A stretch of DNA of 64,000 nucleotides from Psammoneis japonica (lineage: Eukaryota). A model generated the notes under the pieces. The model did no database searches and was not told where the DNA came from. It saw nothing but the letters and a program-made list of their open reading frames with translations. Below are positions 5,564-58,866 of the stretch, in pieces; position 1 is the first letter of the stretch, and the number at the start of each line of letters is the position of its first letter. The stretch spans positions 434,001 through 498,000 of the forward strand of contig QPGO01000009.1 of NCBI GenBank assembly GCA_008632985.1, read 5' to 3'. A program made the translations under genes and the position numbers.

Positions 5564-5659
5564 CTCCAGCGGGTTGTTGCCGGAACCAAAGCAGGCATCC
5601 AATGAAGACGCACAGTGGCGGACAAGGCATCCAATGAACACATCAAGGCCCAGTCGTTA

Positions 5660-11370: not shown

Positions 11371-11399
11371 AAACTGCCGCAGTCATGGACAAGTTTAAA

Positions 11400-31600: not shown

Positions 31601-32599
31601 AGAATTCTGCGTGCGAGCTCTGCAGTGAATTTGTCAAGCAATGAAAATGTGAATGATCACCAACAGAAAAAGAGGCAATTTTTACGAACGTGTCTCCTCC
31701 TCCACACTTGGAGCACATCATTGGCAGTTTGCCTGGGTGCATTCCACAGACATTAAAGAACACGCCCAGCACATTTTCACTCTCACAAATGTTGAAAATA
31801 GAGAGCCTTTGGCTTTGAAAAACAGGGAGCATGAAACAATTTTGCAGAATGTCACATGCAGAAACGTGCACATGCAACATGCAACACGATAAAAAAAAAC
31901 TGTTGATGTCACAGCTCAGCAGTGCAAGGTCCCACCCAGAGCTGGAGCACATCATTTTTGTGCACAACAGGAGCTGACTGTTGTCCTGTCATCGAGGGAG
32001 AGTCGGCTTCCTAAAGGCATGCTTCCAGTTTCAGCCAGGCTTGGGGTTTCAGGGGGGGAGATTTTTCAACAAAATGGGGAATCTCCTAGATGAAAAAGCG
32101 GGGGCCCAGATTTTGGAAAGCACTGAGAAGAGATGATCAAATGAACCTAAAAAGCTCCAACTGTGTTGGCACCTGGACTGACCTGTCATTGCATGCCAGG
32201 AACAGAGACAGCCTCATCTTGTCCAAAAAATTCTTATTTGGTTTTCATTGAACAAGTTCCCCAGCAGAGAAAACACACATTGCTTGAGCTTCATCACCCA
32301 CACCAATGGGGATGATTGCACGTGGGCATGGGAGGAGCTGCAGGTGGAAGCGGTGGCTTGCCACCAGATGGTTCATCTGCACAACAGGCGTGTCTTCCGC
32401 CATCACATCTTTTTTGTTGTCCCTTGTTGTCCCTTGTTGTCTCTTGTCTGTGTGCCATGTCAGTGCTCACTGGTGCAGTGCCGGTGCCACCATGCTTGCC
32501 ACTTGCTGTTCGATGGTGCACCGTGCGCTGCGCGTGCGATGCAGCACTCACAACCCCCGTGTCTCCAGACAAAATAAACTGCCCCCCCCTGCTCCCCCC

Positions 32600-33210
32600 T
32601 AAAACCCTGAGCCCAGTTTCAGCAAGCCCTGAAGAACATGGATTTCTGGTGCTCCAAGTCCATTGCATTTTTTTGGTGCAAACATGCCTTCCTGGGGAAT
32701 GATCTCGGGTGTCCAAGGGCCTGCAGTGCCGCCTCGAACAGAGGCTTCGGTGCAATCTTGCAGGCTTTTTATGTGAGGGAGGTTGCAGCCAGAGGGCATT
32801 CAATGAACTGCGCTGCTCCTCCGGTGAGGGAGATCCATGACTCCATTCCATTTGGGTGCCCGCGTCTCACCCGATCTGCCGCCACTTCTCCACCTTGGCC
32901 ATTGATGCCTCTCCACTTGTCGCTCAGTGCATCCGTTCATGGCAACCCATGCTCCCAGTGTTTCCTCCGCTTCCCACTCCTCCAGCCATCTGATGGTGGT
33001 TCGGTTGCCTTCATGGTCGAGCAGCACGGCAATGTCGCCAGGTGTCTCAGCTGCTGTTGGCAAGATTGAGCCCACACTCAAACTCCATTTCGAGCCCCTT
33101 TGTCTTTGGATGGGTCCGCACAATGGGAGGATTGCAGGCCTTCCTCATTGGCAAAAGATGGCGTCCGACACTTGGGCTGTTCCAGGAGGACAAAGATGAT
33201 GGCCTGAAGC
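32600..33210 (-). mobile_element. LINE relic, post-RT region
   Basis: LEEWEAEETLGAWVAMNG and FAPKKCNGLGAPEIHVLQGLLKL match diatom LINE ORF2 segments. Confidence 0.65.
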
Positions 33211-33612
33211 AGCGAGGGAGAGCGATGGTTTTTGTTTACGGTGCGGCCGGCGCCGCGAGAGAAAGTGAGAGCTCTTTTGGATCATTCAAATGCGAGGGTG
33301 CACGGGAGATTTCGCGCATTCCGGGTGATGATTCGGTGTTGGCCGCCCGCCACACAGGTTCGTTGTCGTTACCGCATGCATGTAAGGGTCCTGCTGTAGA
33401 AATTAGTATGACATACTCAGCAATAGAAACGATTGAAAATGCGAAGAGTGGCGACGAGAGGAGCCAATCAGAAGTCGTCAAGTCATCGTGCGTACGTTTC
33501 CATACACCACGTACTTACGTGAACTGTACGGCCTTTTCAGTACAAAGTACATTTTTGTGTTGTCCTGCCTCTTGGCTGCAAAGCCAAAGCGACGCAAGCA
33601 ACTCCCACCACA

Positions 33613-35720: not shown

Positions 35721-37006
35721 TCACTCAGACACAAAGTCTTGAAGGCCATCAAAGTTCGCCCACAAGCCACCGATAGGTCCATTCTGCTTGTGATTGATGT
35801 GGGAGATACGAAAGTAAACCATGTACCGGACGTATGGGGACTGGTTGCGCGAAACGCGGTGCGGGAGCTTCTGATGAAGAATGACAGCATCTCCCGGCTC
35901 CAACTTGAGTTGCGTCGACGCTCCAGGTCCAAAGACTGGGCGGTGTCCGTGCCAAGGATCTTCCTCCTCCTCGGGATCATCGTGGCCACCAGAGTTCTTG
36001 CGAGCCTGTACAGCAAGCTTCACCGCCTCATGAACCGTGCTGTGAACGCCTGGAAAGACCGCAAGGTTTCCACAATTCTCAGTGGGCTGAGAGGAAAGAG
36101 CGACTCCGACCAAGAGCTGGAAGGGAGACATATTGGGTTTCGGAATGCCGTCAATATGCCACTGGTCGTCTCTGGGATCGCGTTTCTTGTTGTTGGGGAA
36201 ACGAAGAGCCAGCTGGCCTCCTTTGGGACGCTGGGCCATGCCTGCGCCCAAGAGCTGCTCGCAAGCTCCAAAGAGAGGAGACTTGTAGAGCAAGTCATGA
36301 ATCGCAGGCTGGCGCTTTCCTCTCATGGGATCACGAGGAGTGGCGTCTTGGCTCTCCCAAACCTTACCAAGTAGCCCATTGATGCTCTTGAGGGCATTTT
36401 CAACCAGCGCCTTATCCACCAAGGAAGGAAGATGCAGCATACCGGTTTCCATGAACGCCACACGTGAAGCGTCGCTCAATTCATAAGTCGACTCGATTTC
36501 CATAGGGACTTCGATGTCCTCCTCGTCCTGGGACTGCTCTTGAACATTGCTCCCATCAGTGGGCTCAAGTTTGAGCATCTCGGGATGCTCGACAGCGACC
36601 AACGTGCCTTGATGGACACCCAAGAATACCTGATTGCCCTTGTTGCGATGTCCAATGTTTTGGAGAGTAAAACCATTCTGGGCGTCGCCTCGGATTTTCC
36701 ACTTGGCCCAAGGTCCGCGACGTCCATTGTTCTGTACATACAAAAAAGTATTATTAAAGCAATAGGCAGTCAGCACAGGATTTCAATTACCGCTTGCAAA
36801 AAGAGGAAAAACACCGAACATACCTTGATGCGACGTCCTGGACCGCACCTGAGGTTATGGTTCCCATCGACTCCCAAGAAGATCACATCGTTATTCTTAC
36901 GGGAGGGACGGATGAGATAGCTGGAGCCATCAACGTTAGATACCTTCAAAGGTGTGCCAAGCGGCAACGGCAACCTCTTGCTGTTGTTGTTTGGCTGGTT
37001 CCTCAT
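35721..37006 (-). CDS. Phytanoyl-CoA dioxygenase (PhyH)-family 2OG-Fe(II) oxygenase with N-terminal extension; intron 36732-36823
   Basis: WHIDG (HxD), GNLAVFPG and LEPGDAVILHQKLPH...R motifs, plus an in-frame intron. Start codon uncertain. Confidence 0.75.
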
Positions 37007-37059
37007 GGTGATGCTGAAAAAGTGGCAATTTTTTCATATTCGTGGCCGGTTTAAAGGAA

Positions 37060-39000
37060 AAGGGAAAAAGGAGGGATTCCGACAATTGAACACACACAAT
37101 TTGACCATGCAACCAGGGCCAGAGTTGCACTGGCTTCTTTTGGTCCAGGGTGGTTGCTGCAGGTGCAAAGAGTGGGGCACATTGCAGCTGCAGGAGGGCA
37201 ACAATGTGACTCTGAGTGTGTGCTGCCAAGCTGAGAAGCCCAGCTTGGTTGTGAGCCAAGCCCTGCCAGGCCCTGCTGCCCTGGCTCCACAGCTGCTCCT
37301 CCCAGTGTGTGCATCAATTGTTGAAGGAGCACCACATTGACTCAAAGGCTGTGTTTGGGTGGAACAGAGAGGGAAAGAATGTTGTCCTCTGACTGGTGCT
37401 TGCTTCAGACCCCGCATCATGAGCACAAGCTCCTCTTGAGAAATGAGTGAGAGACACTTCACACAGTCATTTTTGGTGCCTCTCTTTGGCTGCCCACTTG
37501 GCATTGCCAACAAACTCTTGAACCCAACCTCACTCACAATTTCTTCACCCTTCAACCACAAAAGCAGGCTCAACTTTTTGTTGGCTTTTTTGTGGCCAGG
37601 GATCACTGTTGCAGGCACAAATGGTGGGCACATGCCACGTGGCTCTGCTTGGCAACAATGTGATGCCAAGCAAGCATGTGCCACCCACCAAGGAGCCAAG
37701 CAGCCCAGCTCAGCTTTGAATGGAGCTCCAGGACAGCAGCCAGCTCTCAGTGCTTCCAGCATGGCTTGCTTGCTCAAGCTGTGCTGCATTCACCCCACAA
37801 TGCTCTGTGTTGTGGTGGCTTGTTGCAAGCCATGAGGAGTCTGCAGTTGGCCAGGGGCCCATTTTGTAAAGGCCACACATGTTGTGTGAGGGGCCAGGTG
37901 CAGAGATCTGCAACAATGGCTTTGTGGCTGTTGGCGCCAAGTTGGCATTTGATTGGGAGCCAGTGCTGAGGGGCTGTGAAGTGGCTGTGCTGGGGTTGGG
38001 AGCCCAGCCAGCTCACACTCTCTTGTTGTCACAAATTGCTGTCACAGCTGTCTTTGCATTGCAACCAGCCAGGTGCAGTTGGTCCCAAGCTGGCACTTGA
38101 TTTGGAGTGACTGCCAAGGAACTGTGAAGTGTGGGGTTGGGCAGTCCAGCCAGCTCACACTCTTTGCTGACAGCAGAAAGTGCTGTCGCACCTGTCTTTG
38201 CATTGTGGTGCCAGCCAGGCACACATGGCCAGAGCAGCCTTGGCACATCCTGCTGACAAAACTGGCAAAACAGCAACTCTTGTGGTTGGGCCAGCATGCA
38301 GGCAGTCTGGGCACACCCCTGGGAAGTCAAACAGGAAGGAGGGCTCAGCATTGCCGCCAGTGCCAGAAACATGCTCAGCAGCTTGTCTTGAGAGAGATTC
38401 GAGCCCACACAGCCCCGAGCTGGGTGTCTTGGCTGGCAGGTTGGAAAGCATTCTTGAGCACAGTCTGGTGTGTGGGTGGCACTGTCACCAAGAGAGCTGC
38501 TCTGCAGAGGAAGAGGGAAACAGGCAACAGCATTTTGCAAGAACTGTTTTTTTTTCAATTGTTGGGTGGGATGGGGCAGCATCTGGACTTTGACGGAGCA
38601 TTTGGCGGACAAAGCTTGAGCACAGAGAGCTGTCCACTCAAGCTCCACAAGTGGCACATTCCAAAGGTGACACCACACATGGGCCATTTGTTCATGCATC
38701 AACATGCATCAAGCTGCAAGTCTCACAAAAAACCACCACCAACCTTTCAACCAACCACCATGGAGGAGAGAACAGGGCAAGAGGTTCGAAACAAGAGTGA
38801 TTCGTTGACTCTCTTCTTGTTTCATGCATTCAAGAGCTTCTTGTCCTTCTTGAACATTTGTTGTGCATTGTTGTCTCTTTTAATTCAAGTGCAAAGAGGA
38901 ATCACTTTTCTTGTTTCTTTCTCTTGAGGGGTTGTTGGTTGTTGAGTGATGCAATTTTTGTTGTCACATTTTTGGAAATGTTGGCAAACCCGATCACTGG
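37060..39000. other. TpA- and CpG-depleted hypermutated domain 4 (unidentified relic with internal repeats)
   Basis: Almost no TA or CG. ggggttggg..cagccagctcacactct is repeated at ~37993 and ~38133. Confidence 0.75.
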
Positions 39001-39457
39001 CTTGATTGTCAACCCATTCACCATTTTAAGTCTCCATGGCATAAAATGCCATAAGCCCAGAGCCCTCAATTGTTTCATCAAACGCAGTGCTTTGCACACG
39101 TCCAACATCAACTCGACTCAGTTGAAATCCCAATTTGTGGGCGATGAAAAATCACGAATGTCAAACAAATGGCTACTTTCGACACCAACATCCCCGAGTT
39201 CAATCCAAATGTGACGGTATGCCTTACAGCTTATGACCATGACACATACAAGCATGCTTTATTGTTGTCATCGCGTACTCGTATTGAAAATGCCGATAGA
39301 TCAAAGTTTACGAAAAGGATGGAATACAAATTCATTTGTGTATTCATTAGTGGCATTGGAATAATGACATTAAGGGCAGAAGGGATCTAAAATCCTTATT
39401 CATCATTGACATTTCTGTATTGCTCAGAATTTGAAATCTGACCACTGCCGTTAAGCA

Positions 39458-39590
39458 TTTAGCTTTCTTTTGTGTCGAAGTGTAAATGACACTTAACGAT
39501 TTGCACTAATCATATAGCTGTCTCTGTGTCGAAGTGGAAATGACACTTAACGTTTTACACTATTCATTTAGCTTACTTTGACTCGAAGTC
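39458..39590. repeat. Short tandem repeat (~55 bp, ~2.5 units) in an AT-rich probable element end
   Basis: tgtgtcgaagtg(t/g)aaatgacacttaacg occurs twice, plus a partial unit. Confidence 0.7.
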
Positions 39591-40222
39591 AAATGTCGAG
39601 TTTGGGTTATGGGCTTATCGTTATTCAGCCACGATCATGAAGTCTTTGCCGAAAAAAGTGCTGTTTTTATCTCAAAAGTGAATTGTGTCTCGAAAGTGAA
39701 TTTTTGCTCGAAATGAGAATTGTGAGAAGTGAAAAAGAAGCATTATTGAGTCAAATCCTCGAAAACTTGAAAATGCATCGCTTCACTACTAAAAACAGGG
39801 TTCATTCGAATTCCTTGGGGCAAAACACGATCAAACTTCCGTCTTATTCTTCCGCATCAATGTCATAGCTTGCTTGTTGACGAGATGAAGGCAACGAGGC
39901 ATCAAAGCATGTAGCAGCAACAAGGATCATCGGGGGTAGCATGGACAAGTTTTCAATGGTGGTGACAGACCAAAACCACGAAGAATGAAAGTGTGGAGTG
40001 AGATGTGCAGCAAAGAAATGGAAAAACAACGAGAATCTAGTTGGACCCCCGTGTCGACTCGTGGGCATCTTCTGCTTCCTTTTCTCTTGGTTGCATGGAT
40101 TGAGAGACACTTGAAAAAGAGAAAAGGCTTCTCAGCGGAAATGTTGTTGATGTGCGTGGTGCTCCAGGAGGTGGCTTGAGCTCGTGCCTCATTTTCTTCC
40201 ACCAACGCATGATCACTTTGTT

Positions 40223-43200
40223 CGCGACCGATCTGTTTGGGGGGCAACCGAGCACCCGTGTGATTCTGCTTTTCGCCACCAATCTCTTTGCATGACAATC
40301 GAGTACCTGGAGCGGTTTGAAGAAGGGAAATTTTACAATTTGCTGACATCCTTCTTGCAAGAGGCAAGATTCGGGGTGGAAGAGTGCCGCTCTAGCCACC
40401 AATGATGCCACTGCTTGTGGATCTTCACAAGATCACGGAGAATCCGACATCGTCGAGCGGACCCACCTCTCTGTCCCCAGTGTTCAAAATGCACTGTGTG
40501 GCTTTTATTGCACACTTTTTGAAAATACGAGCATTGATGTTGTGGTCTAGATGGCGCGGCTGGAGGAGCCCTGTGGCAAGTTTGTTGCATTGTGGGAACG
40601 GTTCTCTCTGCCTTGGACAAGGAAGAATCAGCAGATGACGTTTTATGACAAATGCGGTCGCATCGTTTGCCTGTTACTTTGGTGAGAAGAGACTGTTGCA
40701 GCATGTTTTTTTTTGGTTGGATGTTGATGCGATCGCCTTTGCAGCATTGCCAAATGGTTTCCTTTGGGTCAAGACGAGTTTTGGCGAGGAAGTCACTCAA
40801 CTTGCGAGGTTGATGCATGAGGTTATCTTGAGACATCTCTAGACAGACTGTGTGCACACTCTCTGACAAGACATTGCCAGCAGAAAACAACTGCAGCTGC
40901 CAAACAATGATTCAAGAACATTGCCCAAAAGCATCCGATGCCATGGCAGCTGCTGACACCACTTGTCTGCTGCAATCTTTGTCAGTTTTTTTCTTGTCAC
41001 TAGAGATCCCATTGAAAAAAGATCTTTTACAACACAAAAGACAGACAAGAGCTGTTTTAGGACAAGTGCGATCTTGAAGCAGAAGGAGCTAGAACAAAGA
41101 CAAATCGTGTCGCAGGCTCCATCCCTGAACTCACAGTGCCGTGGACCTCCTTCTACATGGAAATCTGTTTGCACGGGACCACTAGCAGTCTCTTTCCCAA
41201 TAGAACAGCTCGGTGAAGATCGATGCAGCATTCCACGAGATGGAAGATCCGAAAGACATCAAGAAAAAATAACATGCAGTGCATGCATGCTCCCAAAAAA
41301 TAAAATGTTCGAAATCTACGTCTGATGTGCGTCCGCAAAGATCTGATGACTAACCAACGCGCGACCACACAACAACAGAATCAAATCAAAGAACGAGAAA
41401 CTTCACCATGACGCTCGCGATCGATTTGCCGCTCGTTTTCGGAAGATTCGGCATGCCAGTACCGTTTCCGACATTTTTGAAAATATCTGATCCCACTAGA
41501 GGATAAGTTGTCGAAACCTGCCAGGCACCGAGAGCACACGAGTCGTGGAAGACCGAGGACTGAGGCTCCGTGGATTTTACGTGCTTCTGGTACACGAACA
41601 ATCCGATGCTGAATTTCCGCTCGCTCTCGATTCGCTCATAATTCTGACAATCAACTCAAACAACACGGCAGTAATGGAGGAGTTGATTGTGTTTCTCTTT
41701 TGACCATGGCGCTCTTTGCAGTGGCCATGGGCGTTCTGCTTGCTGCCGGCTTTTGTCGTTGCAGAGTAAGGTACGTGCGTTCTTATCGTGATCGTGTATC
41801 GTGTTGTTCCTTTTTCTTCTGTATTTCATCCACTCAACTTGCTCTCGCCTTCTTGTACGTACACAGAGACAGAATTATCATTTCACGGTGGTTGTGGGCA
41901 AGAAGCGGATACGTTGAGGTGCTCGTGTCTAGGTTGCGGCACGGCGGTCTGGGATCGGATCTTCAAGACGAGGCGATGTACTGATTGTGGTTTGGGATTG
42001 GATTCACCAAGAAGGACGTTTTGAAAAGTACAGCAGCAATGCGAGGCTACCCATTAGGATTGAGCAGACGTGGCACTCAGTCTCCCAACAACGTTGGAAT
42101 AAGAGACGGCCTCTTGTCAGTTGCTCTACCCGAAGCAGTAGCAAAATCTCGTACTTGACTTGTTGTGGCTTTTGCTGCCATGGGGCGGCGTGAACGTGGA
42201 AGCGGGGTTACTCATTAGGACTTGGATAGACGTGGCACTCAGTCTCGCAACCCGAGACGGCCTCTTGTCAATTATCCTGACTCGAAGCAGTAACGCGAAC
42301 TCGCACACGAATTCACAGTACGGAATGTTAGATTGCGGGGCCACCTATTAGGGCATGAGTAGATGTGAAGGCTTCAGCCTCTCGTCAATTATTCATAGTC
42401 ACGAAGCAGTGGCACAACAACTCGCACACATATCCATTGGTTGGGAGAAGAACGAATTTTGCCGCAAAGGCAAGGTGGACGTTAGACGGGGCTACCCAAT
42501 AGGGCATCGGCGGACCGGGCAATCAGCCTTTACCGATAGTCACGAAGCAGTAGCGCAACACTCGCCAACGTCTTCACCAAGGGGGGCATTACGTCAGTCG
42601 TGGGGTTGCCTAGTAGGGCTACCTGTGTGGTAGTCTCGAAGCAGTAGCTAAAACTCACCAGATGCCCCCACCTGTTCCACCAACAAGTCCTTCCGAAGAG
42701 GTGTTTATGACATCCGGTGACCATGTCAGACCATATGAAGGCTAGTACTCGGAATGTTGATGACACAGTCGGTCCAAGAACTTTGCAATCTATCAGAGAA
42801 ATGCCACCATTCGGTTCGCTTTTACAGCTCAAGAATTCAGGCTCGCAGTATTGTAAGCCGAGGCCGTTTCGGACGTCATCTTGAAACAGAGAGGCAACAT
42901 TGACGAAAGAGAATTCATTGACCACACTCTAATTCAGGCTCGCATTGCTATCATGTAAGTCGTGTCGCTTCGGAAGTCAAGCTTGTTGTTGAAACATTGA
43001 CGGAAGAGAATAGAGCATTCGTTGGGAGCAATCATTTTACAAGGCTCCCACGAAAAAATACAAATCATACCTCTCTAGAGAGACAATAAAAACACGTCTC
43101 AAATAAAAGGAATAGAAAACAGAGTTCCTAAAACGTCCGCTTGCAATTCTTTACAATTTGCAATACCTTAGTACTACTTCTAGCTCGCTCATGCGCATTT

Positions 43201-43310
43201 CTACCGTATGAGGCGGTCGTCAGTCTTTTAAAGCAAGACGGATATCTATGTCGTAGCATATTCTGGCTGTATCCTTTACGTTGCGAAACCGCACGTGCAA
43301 GTTGTGGACT
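40223..43310. repeat. Segmental direct duplication, copy A (~3.1 kb; copy B at 47931-50950)
   Basis: Colinear near-identical sequence, reflected in near-identical ORF pairs such as 41987/49687 and 42160/49860. Confidence 0.95.
42030..42660 (+). pseudogene. Degenerate ankyrin-repeat gene fragment (also in copy B, ~49730-50360)
   Basis: GVNVEA...ALSLATRDGLLSII and SHEAVAQ (twice), with internal repeats agacgtggcactcagtctc and gagacggcctcttgtca. Many frameshifts. Confidence 0.4.
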
Positions 43311-43528
43311 AGTCTAGATTTTTCTCTCAATTGTGGAGGTGGTGCGGGTAGCTTTTGGAAGATTTGAATCTTCTGGCGCGCGAATCATCTCCAATCCTTC
43401 CTTGCGGTTGGCATACCGTATGGTTGACGATTGGCTAGCTAGAATACGTCAAAGAACCGCATGTTTAACCATTGACCTACTACTAATAATAATAATAAAG
43501 AGTTTACTACTTGGCGCTTCTGTAATGA

Positions 43529-43812
43529 TTATAGTCTCGCAAAGATCTCTTCGGGTGTCGCATCCCGTCCTAGCTTTTTGCGATTGGATCCACTCTGATC
43601 AACATATCCGCCCAGCGTTCGAATCAAGTGAGTTCTCTGCTTGTGTTGCAACAAGGCTTCCTCCAAATCCATATACCCCTTTTCAATCAGCATGTCCCTG
43701 ACACGCTCATCCTTGACAAAAGCGTTCTCTTGAAAAAGACCACGAACCGCATTTCTCGCGTCCTGCTCGGGCATGTCCAGATCGTAGATAGCTAAAACGC
43801 GGGGAACCTCTC
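43529..43812 (-). CDS. NDUFA6: Complex I subunit NDUFA6/B14 (LYR family), 3' exon; 5' exon not found
   Basis: REVPRVLAIYDLD...F..N..VKDERV.DMLIEKGYMDLEE.LLQHKQRTHL. A splice acceptor (ctactctag) lies upstream. Confidence 0.75.
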
Positions 43813-44106
43813 TAGAGTAGGTGTGGAGCAAAGCGAGAGGCATGGTTAGCACACGAGACGGCAGTTAGTAGTATTGATTGTTCATCGATTAGGGCTAGAG
43901 TAGATGCTCTCTCGACCTGCTCTAACAAATGAGCAAAGACACTCTCTCGGACTAGACTATCACGGAATCTGGAATCTTCTCCAAAACACACCGACGTCAG
44001 CGAGTGACGAACGAACATTGTCTCCCCGATCTTGTATCTATTAATACCGTATCAAACGACAACATCCACAATAGAGGAACTCACTTTGCAATGCTACGAT
44101 ATAATT

Positions 44107-44829
44107 GAAAAGATTATTCTGTCTTGGATATGCCTTTGGTGGGGTCTGTGAAGAGCAAGTATCATTCATAACACAACTACGGCATGCACCGACGCCTCTC
44201 CTCGCTTTCCGACAATAAAAATACATTTTCCCGTTTGTCTAATCTACTGGACACTAATTGAGTCATATAATAGAATGATAATAGAAAGGTTATACCAAGC
44301 ATATTCTTCTTTTATCTGAAGCTATTGTTTCCTTGTTCTCCATGGTAGCATCATTCTGGATTCTCCTCGGCTGGTCGTGCATCCGTGAGTCGAATGAAGA
44401 CCGTAATCCTCATTTTGTTCAACATCAGGTCGTTCACTAGAAGAATCATGAGCAGAGGAACCACTGGAGGAGTCGCTTGATGGGCTGCAAGTGCTTTTGA
44501 TTTTGACATTGACAAAAGGACCCCGATTCTCCTCGTCAGCACTAGCAGAACTCGCAGGAACGGCATCAGTGCCTTCCTCGGTGGACGTGTCAGCAACAGC
44601 CTTTGCTTGGCATTTCTTGGTGGATCTATTGTGCTTCCTCGTATTTTGGTTGAGCTCTTCCTCTTCTTTTCATGATTCCTCTGCTTCTCGTTGCTTTGGG
44701 ACAGCATGCGCTAGTGGGGAGCTTTATGACTGAAGCTTGCGCATCGCTTGTGTTGATGTTGGACGGTGTGCTCCACATTGCTCTTCACAGACCCCACCAA
44801 AGGCAAATACAAGGCAGCATAATCTTTTC
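44107..44829. mobile_element. MITE/Pack-like element with 52-bp imperfect terminal inverted repeats
   Basis: 44107-44158 is the reverse complement of 44778-44829 (core ttgctcttcacagaccccaccaaaggca) with ~4 mismatches. No clear TSD. Confidence 0.6.
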
Positions 44830-44879
44830 GTAACTATAAATAAGAGAATCGATCAAAGAAGTGTGAGTAAAGAGACGAA

Positions 44880-45480
44880 ATGAATGAAAAAGCATCAAAG
44901 TATGGGTCGGTGTCAGTCAAAAAATGCCGACATGAGACCACACATGTGTGACCGATATTTCTCTCCACAAAACAAACAGACAACATACACAAGACAGGGG
45001 ATGATTTTTGTATCCATAATAAAGAGATAACAGCAATGGTACGCAACAAAGGAGGTGTATTGAACGAATAAACATCAAAGTATGGATCATGTCAATTCCA
45101 TGCTTTTTGATGTTTCTTGTCGATACGAGAGAACGATGTTTCTCGACACAGCCCCCACCCACAGCATGCCCAAGACACAGAAAACTTTTCGTGACTATTG
45201 TGAGTCGATTTTAGCGAAGGGATTCATCAGAGGAAGTGAAATGAACGAATAAACATCCGAGTATGGGTTTTGCCGCTCAGAAATGGCTGAAGACAAAAGC
45301 AAAAAGACCCATCTTTTGATTTCTACACAACCACAACACCGTTTCTCGCCAAACCAAGGACCTCACCTAATAATTCGACCTCCTAAAAGTAATATCCGTG
45401 TCTTTAATGAACGAAAACGACGAAGAATAGCTCAAACAACGCCGAGTATGGGTCGCCGCTGCGTCATCTCCAAAAACGCA
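44880..45480. repeat. Degenerate ~180-bp-period repeat
   Basis: An (a/g)agtatgg core with partly conserved flanks (aaacatc upstream) recurs at ~44892, 45073, 45254 and 45440. Confidence 0.55.
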
Positions 45481-45609
45481 AATCCGACGTTCCGAAAAAA
45501 AGTCTCTCCGCGCTAAATCCCACGGATCGCGCGAAAAGCAATACCGTTCCGAACGGCGATCACTGTAACTCTGCTATATTTATCCTACATAATGTAATAA
45601 AAAGCATTC

Positions 45610-45802
45610 TTTGGTGTGCGACAAATGACCGTGAGCAATTGGCTCACGGAAAGTTGTCGCACACCAAACATTGATTTGTACATGTCTTTTAAGAAATTGT
45701 AACTATGGTATCTTTATCCTCCATAATGTTATAAAAAGAAATATTTGGTGTGCGACAAATGACCGTGAGCAAGTGGCTCACGGAAAGTTGTCGCACACCA
45801 AA
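45610..45802. repeat. Two direct copies of a 59-bp nested palindrome (45610-45668, 45744-45802)
   Basis: tttggtgtgcgacaa...ttgtcgcacaccaaa forms a 15-bp outer stem around ccgtgagc-N5-gctcacgg. Confidence 0.9.
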
Positions 45803-45899
45803 CATTGATTGTGTGTAATCGTTAAGGAATTTGCATTTTTCAACTTTTGTCCTTAACAATTGCATAAAAAGCATTCTTTAATGTGCCCACAACATGACC

Positions 45900-48800
45900 G
45901 TTGAGCTAGCCAGTGCACACAGTGTTGTGGTCCTACAGCAAATGAAGCATTGCTCACTGTCGTGCGCACAGGCAACGGAAAGTTAAAGAAAATGAGGCTG
46001 ACTTTGCTGTGAGCTGTGAGGATTGCGGACCGAAGAAGTTGGGAGATTCGATGTCTGGACTCGAGGTTGTTTCCGCAACTGTTGGTGTGAGAGCATCTGT
46101 TGCTGAGGAAGGTCGAGGAGAAGATGGGGAAATCGAGTGGTGGTCATTGTGGGATGCTCACCAGGCGCTTGGGTTGGGCTTGCTGTCGCCATCCCATTGA
46201 GGAGAACTTCGGGGATGATCCAACGTGTTGTGGGTTCGGTCGGATCAAAATCTGCGGCAGGTTGACTCCCGAACCTGTTGTCGCGTCTGGCTCAAAACTC
46301 TCACAAAGGACATTTTGAAAACGAAACGGAAACTTTCCCAAAATCTTCCGTCTTCCACGATTGCGATGTCGAGTGCCACGGATGTCATCCACAATTTTCC
46401 CACAAGGACAAGCGACAATGGTTCCCAAGAGCAACGCCCACAAATTGGTGAAGAGCAAAGCCAAAAAGATTTCAGAAACAGGATTGAAGGCATTCAGGAC
46501 AAGCAAGAATCGTCAAAAAGCCGCAGAGCGCAGGAGAAAGAAGGAAAGGGAACAGGAGAGCCAAGCAGCCAAGAAGACAGCTGAGCCCAGCGGGAGCCAT
46601 CGGTGGCGTACAAGGAGCACTGCCTGGCAAAAGATGGGCCGGGTTCATGAGGCATCACGCTGATCTAGAAGGCATTCGTCGCCAAAAACATGCTGCTGAG
46701 TTGAAGCAATTGCGAAGCATTCACAAAGAGATGACGATGTCCATGGCGACAAGATGGTCCAGCAACATGTGGAGGAGACCAACAAGCTGTTGCAGCATCA
46801 AGCGGAGGAGCACAGGGACACGCGTGAGAAAGGTGAGGGCGTCCGTGAGCTCTGTGCGAGTTTCGTTGGCTCACCCCCTGACAATCCATCTGTGGTGAGT
46901 CCGCCCGCTTTCAATCAGAATGACAACAATGACGACGAGTTGCCGGAGGAGGGCAAGATTCACGAGTGTGATGTTTCAGATGAAGAGGCGGACATGGACA
47001 ATGAGGAGGAGAGTGTTGTTGAGGTTGACGGAAGCTCTGATTGTCGCCGGAAGAGATGCATCAGTTTGCCTTTGACGGATTGTCGCCGGAAGACATTCAT
47101 CAGTTTGCTGTTGATGGAGGATTTCAGAACAACACATGTCAATTTCAACTGTGATGTGGATGTCTCTACATTTGGCGTCAAGGCTGCCCAAAGCGTTTCA
47201 AGTTGCGCTCCAAATGTCAAGCCCAGCAGCAAATTCTTCAAGATCCTCCGCCAAGTCAAGGACCGCATCCCCCAAGATGTTCCATTGGACCTGCACAACA
47301 TTTGCCTGTGTCGCAACGATCTTCAACACGATTTCAGGTTCAGTGCTTTGGACAACCCGCGCGAGTGCAGGGAAACAGTGATCCGTGTCATGCGCCGTCT
47401 CTGCCCAAACTGGATCTTTTGTCACCGCAACCCCGAAGCGGAACAAATGCGCGGTGAAAGGGACCAACTTCTGAACAAAAGGGAAGGGTTTCTCCATGAA
47501 AGAGAACAAATGTTCGATGACATTGCAAACCTCAAGCAAGAGCTCACCCAATGCCAGGACCATCACGAAGACTGTCATTCGAAGAAGCACCGCGCACGGG
47601 ATCCTGCCATTGAATCCCTGTTTTGCTCCAGTGCACTCGCAACCAACGTCGCGCTGCCATTTGGGAATCCTTTTTGTTGGTTTTATCCAATGACCATCAT
47701 CTTTGCTGTCACTTCCCTGCAACAGAGTGACATTCGACGATCAGCTAGAACCGATGCCTCGAGACCTGCAGCAGCAGCAGCAGCAACGAATCATCCAACA
47801 GTGATCAGGGAACAACAGCAGCAACTCCAAGAGTGTCAACGGCTGCTCTGCTGACATGGAGAGCCTCACTTCTTCGATTCCTCCTCCACTGCAGATCAGC
47901 TCACGCGTCCAACTTGTGATTTGATTGAAACACGACCGATCCATTTGGGGGGCAATCGAGCACCCGTGTGATTCTGTTTTTCGCCACCGATCTCTTTGCA
48001 TGACAATCGAGCACCTGGAGCGGTTTCAAGAAGGGAAATTTTACGACATTTGCTGACATCCTTCTTGCAAGAGGCAAGATTCGGGGCAGAAGAATGCCGT
48101 TCTAGCCATCAATGATGCCACTGCTTGTGGATCTTCAAGATCACGGAGAATCCGAGATCATCGAGTGGACCCACCTCTCTGTCCCCAGCAGCATTCAAAA
48201 TGCACTGTGTGGCTTTTGTCGCGCACTTTTTGAAAATGTGAGCATTGCATTACAGTCTGGATGGCACGGGTGGAAGAGCCCTGTGGCAAGTTTGTTGCAT
48301 TGTGGGAATGGTTCTCTCGGCCTTGGACAAGGAAGAATCAGTGAACAACGTTTTTGTGACAAATGTGGTCGCATCGTTTTCCTGTCACTCAGGTGAGAAG
48401 AGACTGTTTTTGGTTGGATGTTGATGCAATCGCCTTTGCAGTGTCGCCAAACGGTTTCCTTCGGGTCAAGACGAATTTTGATGAGGAAGTCACTCAACTT
48501 ACGAGGTTGACACATGAGGTCATCCTGAGACATCTCTAGATGGACTGTGTGCATGCTCTCTGACAAGTTGCCAGCAGAAAACAACTACAAGCGCAGCTGG
48601 CATTCCACACCAGGCAGGCGACTGCAGCTGCCAAATGATTCAAGAACATTGCCCAAAAGCATCCGATGCCACAGCAGCTGCCAACACCACTTGTCTGCTG
48701 TTGTCTTTGTTGGTCATTTTCTCATCACTAGAGATCCCGTTGAAAAAAGATCTTTTGCAACACAAAAGATGGACAAGAGCTGTTTTGGCCAGGCCAAGTG

Positions 48801-48950
48801 CGATCTTGAAGTAGAAGGAGCTGGGGACAAAGACAAATCGTGTCGCAGGCTCCATCCCTGAACTCACAGCGCTGCGAACTTCCTTCCACATGGAAATCTG
48901 TTTGCACGGGACCACTAGTCTCCTTCCCAATGGAACAGCTCGGTAAAGAT
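45900..48950. other. TpA-depleted, CpG-retaining domain 6 with a long degenerate coiled-coil ORF (46754-47854, +)
   Basis: TA is nearly absent while CG is abundant. The 366-aa ORF has a single Tyr and no recognisable family. Confidence 0.7.
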
Positions 48951-50950
48951 CGATGCAGCAACATAATTTTGTCATTACACGAGATGTAAGATCCGAAAGA
49001 CATCAAGACAAAATAACATTCATGCTCATAAATTCTGAAATGTTTGAAATCTACGTCTGATGTGCGTCCGCAAAGATCTAGGGACTAACCAACGCGCGAC
49101 AACAACAATCAAATCAAAATCAAAGAACGAGAAACTTCACCATGACGCTCGCGATCGATTTGCCGCTCGTTTTTGGAAGATTCGGCATGCCAGTACCGGT
49201 TCCGACATTTTTGAAAATATCTGATCCCACTAGAGGATAAGTTGTCGAAACCTGCCAGGCACCGAGAGCACACGAGTCGTGGAAGACCGAGGACTGAGGC
49301 TCCGTGGACTTTACGTGCTTCTGGTACACGAACAATCCGATGCTGAATTCCGCTCGCTCTTGATTTGCTCATAATTCTGACAATCAACTCAAACAACACG
49401 GCAGTAAAATGGAGGAGTTGATTGTGTTTCTCTTTTGACCATGGCGCTCGTTGCCGTGGGTAGAGTAAGGTGCGTGTGTTCTTGCTCTGATCGTGTATCG
49501 TGTTGTTCCTTTTTCTTTTGTATTTCATCCACTCACCTCTCTCTCTCGCCTTCCTGTACGTACACAGAGACAGAATTATCATTCACCGTGGTTGTGGGCA
49601 AGAAGCGGATACGTTGAGGTGCTCGTGTCTAGGTTGCGGCACGGCGGTCTGGGATCGGATCTTCAAGACGAGGCGATGTACTGATTGTGGTTTGGGATTG
49701 GATTCACCAAGAAGGACGTTTTGAAAAGTACAGTAGCAATGCGAGGCTACCCATTAGGATTGAGCAGACGTGGCACTCAGTCTCCCAACAACGTTGGAAT
49801 AAGAGACGGCCTCTTGTCAATTGCTCTACCCGAAGCAGTAGCAAAATCTCGTACTTGACGTGTTGTGGCTTTTGCTGCCATGGGGCGGCGTGAACGTGGA
49901 AGCGGGGTTACTCATTAGGACTTGGATAGACGTGGCACTCAGTCTCGCAACCCGAGACGGCCTCTTGTCAATTATCCTGACTCGAAGCAGTAACGCGAAC
50001 TCGCACACGAATTCACAGTACGGAATGTTAGATTGCGGGGCCGCCTATTAGGGCATGAGTAGACGTGAAGGCTTCAGTCTCTCGTCAATTATTCATAGTC
50101 ACGAAGCAGTGGCACAAAAACTCGCACGCATGTCCATTGGTTGGGAGAAGAACGAATTTTGCCGCAAAGGCAAGGTGGACGTTAGACGGGGCTACCTAAT
50201 AGGGCATCGGCGGACCGGGCAATCAGCCTTTACCGATAGTCACGAAGCAGTAGCGCAACACTCGCCAACGTCTTCACCAAGGGGGGCATTACGTCAGTCG
50301 TGGGGTTGCCTAGTAGGGCTACCTGTGTGGTAGTCGCGAAGCAGTAGCTAAAACTCACCAGATGCCCCCACCTGTTCCACCAACAAGTCCTTCCGAAGAG
50401 GTGTTTGTTACGACATCCGGTGACCATGCCAAACCATATGAAGGCTAGTACTCGGAATATTGATGACTCAGTCGGTTTAAGAACTTTGCAATCTATCAGA
50501 GAAACGCGCTTTTTCTGCCGTTTGCGCCATCTCGGTTCGCTTTTACAGCTCAAGAATTCAGGCTCGCAGTACTGTAAGCCGAGGCCGTTTCAGACGTCAC
50601 GTTGAAAAAGAGAGGCAACATTGACGAAAGAGAATTCATTGACCACACTCTATTTCAGGCTCGAATTGCTATCATTAAGTCGTGTCGCTTCGGAAGTCAA
50701 GCTTGTTGTTGAAACATTGACGGAAGAGAATAGAGCATTCATTGGGGGCAAGATTTTCACAAGGCTCCCATTGAAAAAAAAACAAATCATACCTCTCTAG
50801 AGAGACAATAAAAACACGTCTCACATAAAAGGAATAGAAAACAGAGTTCCTAAAACGTCCGCTTGCAATTCTATACAGTGCCTTAGTCCTACTGCTAGCT
50901 CGCACATATGTCCTTTTCGTTGCAAAACACACGTGAATGTTGTGGACCAG
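47931..50950. repeat. Segmental direct duplication, copy B
   Basis: Aligns to 40223-43310. Confidence 0.95.
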
Positions 50951-51148
50951 AACTTCCCTGAATTCAACGATGACATGACTCCTCGTAGCACTTTCAACTT
51001 GTGGTAGCGCGACGCTTTGAACAGTCCCTCATTTCCGTTTCTGCAGTGAATTCTCAATCCGAGCAAAGAGCCCGGGAAGCCCACCTATCGAGGCACAAAG
51101 CGTCCGACTTCTAAGAGACTTCCAAATTTGCGCTAGATCGCCATGTCG

Positions 51149-53460
51149 TCATCTAGTTTTTTTGCGTTTAGTGTTTCGGCTCCAGCTTTCTGGTAAATCT
51201 TCTTGTTTGGCATGTCGGTAACCCACCGTCGTGTTTAGCAATGAACATATCGCTTCAGAATTTAGTCCACCAGACTGCAGTCTATACAAGACCTCATCCG
51301 TGACGAGACCATCTTGTTTGCATTGTTCAAATGCCAAGCCCACGCATTTAGCATGCAGGTCGCCGCTAGTAGGCAGAAGGTTGTTGCACGCTTTTATCCA
51401 AAAGCCATACGTAAAACTGTCTGGCGAAAGAGTTTTCGAGCTACGCAACTCTTGATAGGTTTTTGTAGCCTCCTGGAAAGCGACAATCTTGTCCTCCTTG
51501 TTACCAATAGCATTGGCGGCACAGCTCAAAACGTAATTGTAAGGATATTCGTTGGGTTTCAAAGATGGATGCTGAGTCTCTGTGTACATGTCGTTTAGTC
51601 TTTGTAACAATTCTCGTGCCTTGACCACGTTACCAACACGTTGTGGGCACTTGGACAAAGCCAGAATAGCCACTGTGAACGTTCGTAGATTCGGCATGTA
51701 CTCTTCCTTCCTTGTGCGATTGTAAATTTCGGTTGCTTGCTCCAAAAGATCCAGCGCCATTAAGGAAGCATCGGGGTCGGTGCTTTTCGACAGGCATTCC
51801 ACGACACTTGTATAGGAAATAATGTCGGGTTGCAAATCTCGACTTTGTCGCATTCGTTGCAATATGCCCATTGCCTTTTGCGCTGCACCACGATCGCGCT
51901 TGCTCTTGGCGTAAGCGTTAATCACAACATTGTAGTTTCGGACAGTCGGTGCCACGGATCTGTCCCCCTGTGCAGCGAGTTGTTCCATTCTCAACAATAT
52001 TTGCTCCGTCTGCTGTGCTGCATCCTTTCGGCCACTCTGAACCCATGCCTGCATAAGGTTGCTGTACGTGAACATATCGGGTCGAATCAACGGTTGATCG
52101 CTCCAACCTCGATCCTGCATGTGCTCTACAAGGTCGATTGCTTTCTGCAAGGACTTTTGAGACACGTGGGCTTGTAGGACTGAGTTGTAGGTCAACTTAT
52201 CGGGTACCAGCGATGGACAGATTTCTTGCAGCTCGTCCAGCTTGAAAAGCCATTCTTGAGCTGTGTGTGCGTGTCCCAACCGCGACCATGCTGTAATGAC
52301 ACCGTTGAATGCAATCAATTCCAATGTGTCCAATTTTCCACTCTTAAAACGATCAACGGCCTCCAGTAGCAAGTCATCAGCATGCTGGATCATTTTAATC
52401 TTGTCCGATCTCGAAGTTACTCTCTGTTTGGACCAAGCCAAGATAATGTTGGAGTAGGTTTGGGAATTCGGTAGAGTTGAATTGGGCATGGACTGACTCA
52501 TGGCTTTCATATCATCAAAAACGCCCTGAGCATTTTGTGGAGAAGTCGAGTCGGAACTCTTACTCAGAGCTTCCACCACCCAATCATGGCATTGAAGGAC
52601 GCGTGATTTCTCATTCAAATCATTAGGGGTTTGCTTGCTTTTGACGATATCTAACATTTCCATAGCCCGACGAGCACATGTTCCTGGTTGCAAATTAGCT
52701 TGTTGCCACGACCAAGCATGCAAGACGTGTACATAACTTTCCAAGTCGGGCTTTGGTATTCGCTCCAGCAAGTCTTCCGCGTGTCGAGCGTAATTCACAT
52801 TTCCTCGCGGTGTAGCGCATATCGCATATGCCTCGAGCACCAAGTTGTAGAGAGCTGTGGGAATTTCTTGATCTGGATTATTCTTCAACAGCATAAACTC
52901 TAACTGTTGCAGCAACTCTTCCAGTCGATCCGCAGCACAAACCAAGCGCGTCGTAGTTTTGCTGCTTGCTTCGTTCCTCTGCATCACATACCATCTTGAC
53001 CGGTTTCGTTTCAGATAGGCGCCCATGACAATTTCAAACGATTCGATGGTGGCTCTTTGCATTTTACAAAGATGCTGCAGCATAGCATCTACCCGTTCTG
53101 CTCCATCAACGTCGGTTGTTAACAGAGTTGGCTTGTTTCTTCGGTTCATCTCAAATAACGGAAGAGCTTCTTGCTGGTTTTTCTTCAAGACGCGAATCAT
53201 ATCCATATGAAACGGATGTGTGGTTGTTCTATTGTTGCTACCAACGACAATTTCATTTTCAAAGTCGTCTGTAAAGAAAGCTTCTTGTTCTTCTTGCCGT
53301 TGTTCCAGCACCATTGGCAATCTCAGTTGTGCGTGTCGGCACGTGTAGCCAAACAACTTTCTCGAACCAGACCTGAACATTTCGTCAAAATCAATAGCAA
53401 CCACAACCATATCACGCTACTGCGGTATTGTATTGAGCAATAGCTAGCTTGCTGGACCAT
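51149..53460 (-). CDS. Pentatricopeptide-repeat (PPR) protein, probably organelle-targeted; probable frameshift near the N-terminus
   Basis: Repeats PDKLTYNSVL, PDMFTYSNLMQAW, PTVRNYNVVINAYAK and PDIISYTSVV, with C-terminal LPESWSRN. A signal-peptide-like MVQQ...WLWLLLILTKCSG is in a different frame. Confidence 0.88.
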
Positions 53461-57600: not shown

Positions 57601-58866
57601 CTACTTGAGTTGTTTCAAACGTAGGCAGGCTTCAGCAATGTCCTGTTTAGATCGACAAGCTGCGAAACGCAAGTAGTGCCGACCCTCGTCTTTTGACTTT
57701 CCATAGAAATTGTCGCCAGGGACGCATGCAACCCCCACAGTCTTGATCATGTGCATGGCTGCCTCCATAGGCTCCATTGCACTCAACTTGGGGACGTTTG
57801 TGTATTTCGCAAACAGATAGTATGCACCTTCTGGCGGAGTAACCACAAATCCAGCCGCGACTAGCGCCGCGGCCAGCACGTCGAGTCTGTCCTTGTATTT
57901 CGTCTTTAGCTCCCGACAAAAGTATGATTCCGGTAGAGACAGATAGGTCAAGGCAGCATATTGCATTGGATGTGGTGCCATCAAGACCATTTGGTCGTGC
58001 ACGCCACGATAGGCGTCCGCCAAGTGCTCTGGATGAATGCACCAACCTAGTCTCCATCCAGTGGCCGATGCTGACTTTCCAATCGAATTGCAAATCAAAG
58101 TCTGGTCTGCAACCTTTGGGAATTCCTTTGGAATAATGTAGTGAGGAGTTTCACCATACAACATGTGCTCATATATTTCGTCTGTCAAAATGTAGACATT
58201 GTATTTGTGGCAAAGGTCAGTAATGAATTTGAGCTCGTTGTAGGTGAACACCTTTCCAGTAGGATTGTGGGGTGAGTTGAGCACCAGAATACGAGCGTGT
58301 GAGATTGCTTCTTCCATTTCCGCCTCGTCATACGTCCAGGTGCTACCACTAGGGCGAAGAGTAACAAAGATTGGGTTCAAGTGAAAAATACCGCACTGGC
58401 TCGGATACAATTCGTGGAAAGGTTCTAGACAAACGACTCCATCCCCTGGCATACCAAGCGTTCTCAGCGCTGATGCAAAAGCTTCTGTTGCTCCTAGAGT
58501 CACAGTTACGGTGTTTGGGTCAACATTGTAGTCATAGAGCCGTCGATAGTGATCGGATATCGCCTGACGCAGGTCCGCTCTACCCATGGGCGCGCAGTAT
58601 TGATTGATCTCGTCACTTTCCGCCGGAGAAGTTGCTTTTCCGACCAGGGCTGTGATGGATTCTTGAAGATTGGTTTCAGACACTTCCAAGTCACATTCGG
58701 GCTTGCCTGCGAGGACACCATACGCCAACGCCAAACGCACTTTCCATGACGGAGCTTCGTTTGGATACCCTTGACTTAGGTTCACGGCTTTGTGTTTCTG
58801 TGCCAACACTGTCATTTTGCGAATGACAGATTCCTTTACCCTTCCGAGATTATGTGATGGTGCCAT
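57601..58866 (-). CDS. PLP-dependent class I/II aminotransferase (kynurenine/methionine aminotransferase-like)
   Basis: AVNLSQGYP, LNSPHNPTGKVF, TDEIYEH, SIGKSASATGWRLGW, PEGAYYLF and LRFA. Confidence 0.92.
   Translation of the reverse strand: MAPSHNLGRVKESVIRKMTVLAQKHKAVNLSQGYPNEAPSWKVRLALAYGVLAGKPECDLEVSETNLQESITALVGKATSPAESDEINQYCAPMGRADLRQAISDHYRRLYDYNVDPNTVTVTLGATEAFASALRTLGMPGDGVVCLEPFHELYPSQCGIFHLNPIFVTLRPSGSTWTYDEAEMEEAISHARILVLNSPHNPTGKVFTYNELKFITDLCHKYNVYILTDEIYEHMLYGETPHYIIPKEFPKVADQTLICNSIGKSASATGWRLGWCIHPEHLADAYRGVHDQMVLMAPHPMQYAALTYLSLPESYFCRELKTKYKDRLDVLAAALVAAGFVVTPPEGAYYLFAKYTNVPKLSAMEPMEAAMHMIKTVGVACVPGDNFYGKSKDEGRHYLRFAACRSKQDIAEACLRLKQLK

Follow-up and report, generated by a model that had tools for sequence, protein, structure and literature searches.

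In a 64,000-nucleotide stretch of the Psammoneis japonica genome (contig QPGO01000009.1, positions 434,001 to 498,000 of the forward strand; hereafter the window, numbered from its first letter), a direct duplication of about 3 kb records independent, directional and context-specific mutation of both of its copies within a positional domain. The alignments and counts below establish the duplication, its mutation spectrum, the independent hits in the two copies, the direction of TA loss, the limits of the domain and the constraint on a conserved core. As a whole, we explain the pair as old paralogues whose upstream DNA was hit in a chromatin domain, with the inner limit of that domain set by something in the duplicated sequence, and give this explanation a probability of roughly 0.68. 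An initial annotation of the same DNA had noticed the duplication and its TA differences; what it observed is confirmed, and its interpretation is supported in part.

Copies A (40225–43192) and B (47933–50907), both on the + strand, were recovered by blastn, global alignment and repeat search, so that the ~3-kb duplication first claimed for this region is real. By blastn the copies share three collinear +/+ segments, with identities of 87.1% over 675, 89.5% over 858 and 94.3% over 1457 positions. A transition-insensitive seed search, run on 30-mers coded as purine or pyrimidine, extended the homology past neither 40225/47933 nor 43192/50907, and the ends of both copies are therefore real; elsewhere in the window the same search returned only the pair 126–599/3817–4287 and some local tandem repeats. 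All five TA differences that the initial annotation gave as examples are present in the global alignment, at most 3 nt from the places it named (Table 1).

It is scarcely credible that an artefact made these patterns, whether an uncollapsed haplotype or misassembly producing the duplication or base-calling errors at modified bases producing the TA-free sequence. The two sequencing runs used for comparison (X1 and X2) come from one sample, probably the assembly's own, and so lend no independent support; among the contigs shown, none spans a whole copy, and contigs with joints from 43245 and 43437 to 50907 exist, their short sides measuring 29–41 nt. Yet 4.7 kb of unique, gene-bearing DNA lies between the copies, their left flanks are non-homologous, their unconstrained parts differ by 7–11% with many indels, which is far from allelic, and an X2 contig crosses the right junction of copy B (50851–51157) with 0 other letters. 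These observations count against both an uncollapsed haplotype and a misassembly, the two sources of error that the initial annotation had raised. The TA-free sequence is real and not miscalled. Contigs assembled from exact 31-letter words of run X1, at a word depth of ~100, agree with the block next to copy B over 45985–46578 (9 other letters in 595) and 46798–47034 (1 in 237), a match of 98.5–99.6%, whereas miscalled TA would be expected to make ~4% of positions differ. The word depth of such contigs is not copy number, and per-contig depth is used here as a hint only. Separately, three contigs (two from X1, one from X2) join DNA right of copy A (43227, 43245 and 43437) to 50907 with 17–32 other letters between; their shorter sides are only 29–41 nt, and they may represent other family members or an alternative arrangement of the locus.

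The evidence for hypermutation comes from the left zone of the alignment (40225–41382 in copy A), in which 122 of 1125 aligned sites are mismatched, 94 by transitions and 28 by transversions. The T/A state at the transition sites is held by copy A at 47 and by copy B at 47, so neither copy is the mutated one. Pyrimidine–purine (Y-R) steps hold 77 of the 94 transitions. Within 40225–41000, transitions affect 61 of 368 Y-R-step sites (16.6%) versus 10 of 388 other sites (2.6%; odds ratio 7.5, p = 1e-11); the same comparison in the right zone of the duplication, 10 of 233 versus 9 of 251, is not significant.

We sorted the aligned Y-R dinucleotides of the left zone by their state in the two copies. 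Both copies have TA at 7, and at 18 it is private to one of them (11 in A and 7 in B; another 2 stand opposite other dinucleotides). For CG the corresponding figures are 34 and 20, and a further 17 dinucleotides have CA in one copy and TG in the other. Opposite the private TAs stand 6 CA and 12 TG. A CA-versus-TG site arises from an ancestral TA or CG only if each copy is hit once, or else through two adjacent hits in one copy; such sites are nearly as many as the single-hit classes, which shows that both copies lost TA and CG fast and directionally once the duplication had occurred. Of the 17, sixteen fall in 40225–41000 (776 of 2968 bp, p = 6e-9), one in 41001–41200 and none in the remaining 2 kb. 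The proposal that both copies were hit independently after duplication is thus borne out by these 17 dinucleotides and by private TAs in both directions (7–9 of them in B when those opposite other dinucleotides are considered).

Post-duplication events fully explain the CA and TG excess of each copy, which means that the left zone had a roughly normal TA content when it was duplicated. Loss per copy in the left zone came to ~0.56 for TA and ~0.23 for CG, which exceeds the zone's own transition rate outside Y-R steps by factors of roughly 28 and 9. The initial annotation described a change at TA only. That loss is genuine, and the description has to be widened, since CpG takes part as much as TpA (20 private CG against 18 private TA). 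Targeting is accordingly not exclusive to TpA, with CpG transitions equally frequent, and these may belong to a second, independent process. Private TA sites, tyrosine (Tyr) codons and dinucleotide observed/expected ratios (o/e) agree in identifying A:T>G:C transitions at TpA (TpA>TpG or CpA), and the CG>TG/CA changes with CpG depletion are those expected of methylated-CpG decay.

Might an old duplication with a conserved core, ordinary methylated-CpG decay upstream and incidental TA differences account for all of this, with nothing special at work? CpG transitions do form a large share of the changes (the 20 sites with private CG, to which many of the 17 CA-versus-TG sites may have to be added), hypermutation has nothing to do with why the core is conserved, and the pair 126–599/3817–4287 differs mainly at CpG. 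We nonetheless consider this very unlikely: CpG decay cannot remove TA, and the left zones hold 14 and 8 TA where ~36 and ~35 are expected, while neighbouring blocks hold 2, 5 and 6 where 61, 18 and 67 are expected. The 18 private-TA sites compare with ~5 expected from the non-Y-R transition rate, and Tyr codons have been turned into CAC or TGC.

The initial annotation placed a single boundary at ~41300/49060, to the right of which the copies were said to be near-identical and to keep their TAs. This boundary is two things: the end of a mutation domain near 41,100/48,830, and a constraint-based near-identity further right. The spectrum changes near 41,000–41,200 and not at ~41300; the domain ends ~300 bp before the conserved core, at the same homologous point in both copies. 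TA is indeed kept to the right of it; identity is not, as the right end differs by 7.1% and an island of exon and intron within the core by 10–11.5%. The near-identity is not the mere absence of the process, because the core segments differ by only 1.2–1.6% on either side of that island. A single gene-conversion tract would also have homogenised the island, so constraint on the core segments is the more likely cause.

The same comparison bears on age. Unconstrained right-hand parts are as diverged as the left (11.5% in the intron and 7.1% in the right zone, against 11.0%), which makes the duplication old; with the left no more diverged than neutral parts, the suggestion that the process is recent does not follow. 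What sets the hypermutated 0.8–1.0 kb apart is its spectrum and its loss of TA, not its divergence. Substitution density and spectrum, whose joint uniformity the initial annotation had named as the outcome that would tell against it, thus behave differently: divergence is alike in the left and neutral parts, and the spectrum differs by zone.

The same signature covers much of the window. Seven TA-depleted blocks with sharp edges, lying beside normal DNA, make up 34,000 of the 64,000 bp (53%), with a TA o/e of 0.03–0.21 and a CpG o/e of 0.15–0.71 per block. They hold 175 TA where 1263 are expected, and the longest TA-free run reaches 1672 bp (16714–18386). Only 4 of the 16 dinucleotides, the Y-R ones, set the depleted blocks apart from the remaining DNA of the window; within the blocks there is symmetry between CA and TG counts, and GC content (0.47–0.51) equals that of the rest. 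DNA of this kind is without TAA or TAG and has TGA as its only stop, so that long spurious open reading frames (ORFs) arise in all six frames, and genuine genes caught in it lose every tyrosine.

TA loss is near-complete in all blocks, and CpG o/e varies between 0.09 and 0.76. The repeat pair 126–599/3817–4287, which is 93% identical and lies in TA-free DNA, differs by 29 transitions and 2 transversions over 471 sites. Most of these differences are at CpG (17 private versus 11 shared CG) and no TA is left in it; that the pair differs almost only at CpG indicates that CpG decay continued after TA had been exhausted. The pattern is best fitted by two processes, of which the one on TpA is faster than the one on CpG. 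GC-biased gene conversion was rejected, as it is not TpA-specific and CpG is lost rather than gained, and so was selection against TA, which is implausible over pseudogenes and at every site.

Genes caught in the blocks reveal the direction of change. We searched the TA-free blocks as stop-to-stop ORFs and compared positions at which the majority of homologues carry Tyr. None of six such positions in TA-free blocks keeps it (3 are CAC, 1 TGC, 1 CGC and 1 AAC), whereas an aminotransferase gene in a normal block keeps Tyr at 19 of 23 (Fisher p = 4e-4). A Kelch-like pseudogene, with 44 homologues that include the diatoms Coscinodiscus and Attheya, has CAC at 4828, 4843 and 4885, where 13 of 15, 17 of 17 and 14 of 17 homologues have Tyr. 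In the TA-free block next to copy B, a 384-aa ORF has 11 homologues at E ≤ 1e-3 (best 4e-15), among them a protein of the diatom Amphora; LCPNW is an invariant motif of the family, and these homologues gave no Pfam family above threshold. A Tyr invariant in all 11 is TGC at 47366, and the ORF contains 0.3% Tyr and 4.7% cysteine (Cys) against 3.0% and 1.3% in the homologues. It may be a live gene or a fresh pseudogene. With Tyr codons lost in the blocks and Cys raised in this ORF, TA was the ancestral state and was converted in place to CA or TG. The left zone is not polarisable through protein in this way, because its ORF at 40336–40911 (−) has no homologue at E ≤ 1e-3 among near-length proteins.

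Under the reverse direction, the left zone and the blocks would have begun TA-free, as foreign or specially composed DNA, and would now be relaxing, the private TAs being new products of CA or TG>TA. C>T is usually the commonest mutation, two copies alone cannot polarise single differences, and the TA-free element at 37034–38880, with a contig word depth of 2000–3000, would itself be multi-copy. This course of events is nevertheless highly improbable, since it requires two adjacent hits in the same copy for every one of the 17 CA-versus-TG sites, which nevertheless nearly equal the single-hit classes in number, conserved-Tyr positions read CAC or TGC here, and the DNA is native, as the affected ORFs have their homologues in diatoms. 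What can be recognised in the depleted blocks is host-type: the Kelch-like pseudogene, an amino-acid transporter fragment and an orphan family common to a diatom. A reverse transcriptase, integrase, transposase or viral Pfam family was found in 0 of the 246 ORFs of the TA-free blocks, though foreign genes could go unrecognised in DNA so heavily degraded. For the window's aminotransferase, the best relatives were without exception diatom proteins, none above 61% identity; the orphan and Kelch families likewise indicate a diatom or something closely related, and genes in the normal blocks are long and intron-poor. In that aminotransferase (57601–59181, −), which is apparently functional, 3 of the 23 majority-Tyr positions are CAC (57753, 58383 and 58551). 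These may reflect ordinary variability or show that the process left a trace in a gene that is still active.

The TA-poor state of each copy reaches past the duplication boundary into flanking DNA. It runs leftwards to ~39,801 from copy A and, from copy B, to a sharp left edge at ~45,984, where TA per 200 bp drops from 8 to 0. The outer stretches, 39801–40224 and 45984–47932, are non-homologous to each other. That the state passes into them upholds the earlier view of the process as positional and favours a domain over recognition of the duplicated sequence. The further suggestion that it spreads from adjacent transposable-element chromatin holds in so far as the pattern is domain-like; transposable-element chromatin gains no support from the ORFs of the TA-free blocks, 0 of 246 of which gave a reverse transcriptase, integrase or transposase domain. 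Moreover, both copies stop at the same homologous point, which simple spreading does not predict, so a barrier inside the duplicated sequence is needed. As had been claimed, duplication does not trigger the process: the right zone and the intron, equally duplicated, diverge at neutral levels (7.1% and 11.5%) and TA is kept (o/e 0.60–0.68). Apart from the pair 126–599/3817–4287, the TA-free blocks have no second copy within the window, and the process is independent of copy number at that scale.

The shared stopping point also raises an alternative in which the same process is targeted by sequence, the left zone itself being recognised in both copies, for example by small RNAs or through homology to a silenced family. 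X1 word depth summed over the left zones is 197–342 versus 57–102 on single-locus DNA, and further copies may exist, although depth is not copy number. The TA-poor state passes without a step into the non-homologous stretches 39801–40224 and 45984–47932, however, which targeting of the left zone by itself would not lead one to expect, and we judge sequence targeting unlikely. Over 37034–39703, X1 contigs have word depths of 2000–4700 versus about 57–102 on single-locus DNA, those of depth 2000–3000 matching the TA-free block 37034–38880. By this depth, the TA-free version of this 37–39 kb element would itself be multi-copy, and an adjoining repeated stretch would have escaped depletion. Run X2 gives no cover on 37034–40237 or 45578–47713 and little on the left zones, which is no evidence of silence.

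The core to the right of the boundary resembles a spliced transcript. An X2 contig runs from 41770 straight into the letters at 41867, skipping a 96-nt GT..AG intron, and a second skips 92 nt with GT..AG ends on the minus strand (36731–36824); with these two skips, X2, whose kind of run is not on record, behaves like cDNA. The transcript looks non-coding from its sequence. A protein-coding explanation was rejected: the 60-aa spliced ORF of copy A is lost in copy B, where 36 nt are deleted in frame and a further 1 nt is missing after the splice site. Core segment 2 holds five tandem units of ~80–130 nt, each closed by a ~10-bp stem between 5' and 3' motifs. Two-sided changes at 7 of 18 predicted pairs in the consensus fold are weak evidence, coming from five sequences only, and on the predicted structure the units may be a precursor of small structured RNAs. 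A search of Rfam over 39,000–52,000 returned only a chance-level CncR1 (E = 0.85), no tRNA was found in the 64-kb window, and an exact 19-nt core motif had 0 matches in metagenome contigs. X1 word depth reaches 630 on the contig 41392–41627 and 580 in core segment 2, against 57–102 on neighbouring single-locus contigs, and X2 word depth on core segment 2 contigs is 1349–1919; the high depth hints at further copies elsewhere, with some five of the core in the haploid genome.

The DNA between the copies includes an inverted repeat (44107–44158/44778–44829, 92% complementary) and tandem arrays of 180-bp units (44869–45269) and 134-bp units (45564–45886), all with normal TA, as well as a LYR-family ORF at 43529–43864 (−).

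Table 1 Positions and counts for the duplicated pair, its surroundings and the depleted blocks of the window
Feature	Copy A or position in window	Copy B	Counts and values
TA example 1	TA 40304	CA 48012	
TA example 2	TA 40526	TG 48237	
TA example 3	TA 40675	CA 48386	
TA example 4	TG 40803	TA 48500	
TA example 5	CA 41080	TA 48812	
Hypermutated part	40225–41000		11.0% divergence; 71 transitions, 12 transversions
Proximal upstream part	41001–41382		10.6% divergence; 23 transitions, 16 transversions, 32 gap columns
TA-poor upstream part	40225–41100	47933–48830	A: 14 TA vs 36 expected, o/e 0.23, CpG o/e 0.60; B: 8 TA vs 35 expected, o/e 0.13, CpG o/e 0.61
Proximal part, diverged, indel-rich, near-normal TA	41101–41382	48831–49116	TA o/e A 0.38, B 0.46
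Core			TA o/e A 0.66, B 0.68
Core segment 1	41383–41705 (+)	49117–49440	1.6%, 5 mismatches in 322 sites
Divergent island in core (exon-1 piece and intron), 161 nt	41706–41866	49441–49567	10–11.5%
Exon-1 ORF piece	41706–41770 (+)	36-nt deletion	10.3%, 3 mismatches in 29 sites
Intron, 96 nt, GT..AG	41771–41866 (+)		11.5%, 11 mismatches in 96 sites
Core segment 2, with the five tandem units	41867–42676 (+)	49568–50376	12 mismatches in 809 sites
Exon 2 before units	41867–42040		1.2%
Five tandem units	42041–42676 (+)	49741–50376 (+)	1.6%
Right zone, not TA-depleted	42677–43192	50377–50907	7.1%; 19 transitions, 17 transversions, 31 gap columns; TA o/e A 0.62, B 0.60
TA-poor stretch abutting copy A	39801–40224		5 TA vs 17.8 expected
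TA-free block abutting copy B	45984–47932		6 TA vs 67 expected (o/e 0.05); CpG o/e 0.76
TA-free, CpG-free block upstream of copy A	37050–38880		2 TA vs 61 expected (o/e 0.02); CpG o/e 0.09; high X1 word depth
TA-depleted blocks	1–7100, 11201–18700, 24201–33400, 36901–39200, 39801–41100, 45901–48900, 60401–64000		o/e in blocks vs rest of window: TA 0.08 vs 0.59; CG 0.39 vs 0.97; CA 1.71 vs 1.21; TG 1.66 vs 1.13
Kelch-like pseudogene	4700–5560 (+)		split over several frames; in TA-free DNA
384-aa ORF	46700–47854 (+)		in TA-free block next to copy B

Taken as old paralogues struck within a chromatin domain, the two copies would have the following history. The duplicated unit would comprise ~1.15 kb of unconstrained upstream DNA, a 1.3-kb core and ~0.5 kb of unconstrained downstream DNA, the core consisting of two constrained segments of a putative spliced, non-coding-looking transcript with five structured tandem units. 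After duplication, the distal 0.8–1.0 kb of upstream DNA of each copy would have come to lie inside a chromatin domain under strand-symmetric, context-specific mutation, in which TpA would be turned into CpA or TpG at ~28 times the local background and CpG, more slowly, into TpG or CpA at ~9 times. Across 34 kb of the 64-kb window, TpA would have been removed by the same process. What fixes the inner limit of the domain would lie within the duplicated sequence, the likeliest candidate being the region of the core transcript's active promoter. By analogy with the proposal made for the chlorarachniophyte Bigelowiella natans, TpA loss would be enzymatic, through adenine deamination or thymine modification on DNA; CpG loss would reflect deamination of 5-methylcytosine, and silent chromatin would be the target and the promoter the barrier.

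Several points, besides the common origin of the two sequencing runs, weigh against this explanation. The hypermutated part, at 11.0%, has diverged no further than its neutral neighbours, and its transversions are fewer (12 in 756 sites versus 16 in 369 in the proximal part and 17 in 508 in the right zone); misalignment in the indel-rich neighbours may inflate the neutral values. With no third copy, the 122 left-zone differences are not polarised singly, and the direction of change rests on double-hit logic, on composition and on six outgroup Tyr positions in other blocks. A simple model of independent loss predicts ~7 CA-versus-TG sites where 17 are seen, so that rates must vary within the zone, and those sites are not assignable to ancestral TA as opposed to ancestral CG. 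Finally, the 0.9-kb stretch 38881–39800 has a high word depth yet normal TA (o/e 0.47), a poor fit to any rule by which all repeats or all silent DNA are hit.

The closest known system is that of B. natans, for which a preprint reports mutation-accumulation lines in which two integrated viral regions acquired 231 mutations, 230 of them A>G or T>C changes that all lay at TpA, at a rate in the viral regions ~1000 times the genomic one, and proposes an ADAT2-like adenine deaminase as the cause; a giant-virus region there has a TpA Rho of 0.45 (Mettrop et al., bioRxiv, 10.64898/2026.01.13.699255). The signature in the window is of the same kind: TpA goes to TpG or CpA symmetrically on both strands, the effect is regional with a normal genome alongside, single-copy DNA is hit and so no repeat trigger is involved, and TpA-depleted, CpA- and TpG-enriched clusters arise in which most genes are without annotation. 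The systems differ in host, a rhizarian there and a diatom-like stramenopile here, and in depth, with the TA o/e here at 0.02–0.10 over blocks of 2–9 kb and 53% of the window affected. CpG is lost alongside TpA here (o/e 0.09–0.76), whereas the change there is at TpA only. The targets there are integrated viruses, whereas here no viral or transposon domain was found in the depleted-block ORFs and degraded host-type genes stand instead, and the preprint follows de novo mutations in mutation-accumulation lines where the evidence here is comparative. The intron-poor genes of the window's normal blocks differ, too, from those of Bigelowiella, whose genome is intron-rich.

In Neurospora and other ascomycetes, repeat-induced point mutation (RIP) has duplication as its trigger, acts along the full duplicated length and makes C>T changes at CpA, with gain of TpA, AT-enrichment and the creation of stop codons. 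Like RIP, the process described here degrades particular regions by context-specific transitions and distorts the ratios of TpA to CpA and TpG. The direction is opposite, however: TpA is made there and destroyed here, with the GC content of the blocks unchanged, and TAA and TAG are removed rather than stop codons created. Only the first 0.8–1.0 of 3 kb carries the signature, which extends outside the duplicated segment; core, intron and right zone escape despite being duplicated, and sequence that occurs only once in the window is affected.

Methylated-CpG decay resembles the process in that CG>TG/CA changes are concentrated in the same blocks, with CpG o/e down to 0.09. It cannot explain the loss of TpA, which is the faster of the two in the left zone (0.56 vs 0.23 per copy) and which has brought 45984–47932 to a TA o/e of 0.05 though its CpG o/e is 0.76.

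The animal ADAR and APOBEC enzymes likewise make deaminase-type transitions with a neighbour-base preference, ADAR favouring U before the edited A, but act on RNA or single-stranded DNA and leave strand-asymmetric tracks; the changes here are symmetric and in place on chromosomal DNA. ADAR-like editing of RNA, followed by reverse transcription and re-insertion, could replace a DNA-level process in principle, since the 5' U preference, which the preprint discusses (10.64898/2026.01.13.699255), matches TA>TG. For the window its probability is close to negligible. Each copy diverged where it stands, between flanks of its own; the outcome is strand-symmetric (CA 1.71 and TG 1.66 in depleted blocks, 6 CA vs 12 TG at private-TA sites); the signature crosses from duplicated into non-duplicated DNA; and a reverse transcriptase domain occurs in 0 of 246 ORFs.

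Fungal RIP is the only case known in detail in which chromosomal DNA is hypermutated regionally and in a context-specific way, and TpA-erasing hypermutation has so far been the subject of one report, a 2026 preprint on one chlorarachniophyte. Our literature search, whose coverage lay outside most subscription journals, found no report of a TpA-erasing process in diatoms or other stramenopiles. The paralogue pair offers a natural experiment that gives the direction of the process, its relative rates (~28x at TpA, ~9x at CpG) and its independence from duplication, and the inner boundary common to two independent copies is a concrete place at which to ask what stops the process, be it promoter, transcription or chromatin barrier, and which enzyme is responsible.

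That a chromatin-domain-directed, TpA-erasing mutator operates both in a diatom-like stramenopile and in Bigelowiella, as an old or widely shared algal genome defence or silencing by-product and not as the peculiarity of a single species, is a possibility we put forward tentatively, at somewhat less than even odds. If it is true, the mutator has consumed about half of this region and acts on silenced host pseudogenes as well as on any foreign DNA. It would run ~3 times faster than methyl-CpG decay and come to a stop at the promoter region of an RNA gene that is expressed. Once an element had lost every TA it would no longer be a target, which could explain the multi-copy, TA-free element at 37–39 kb.

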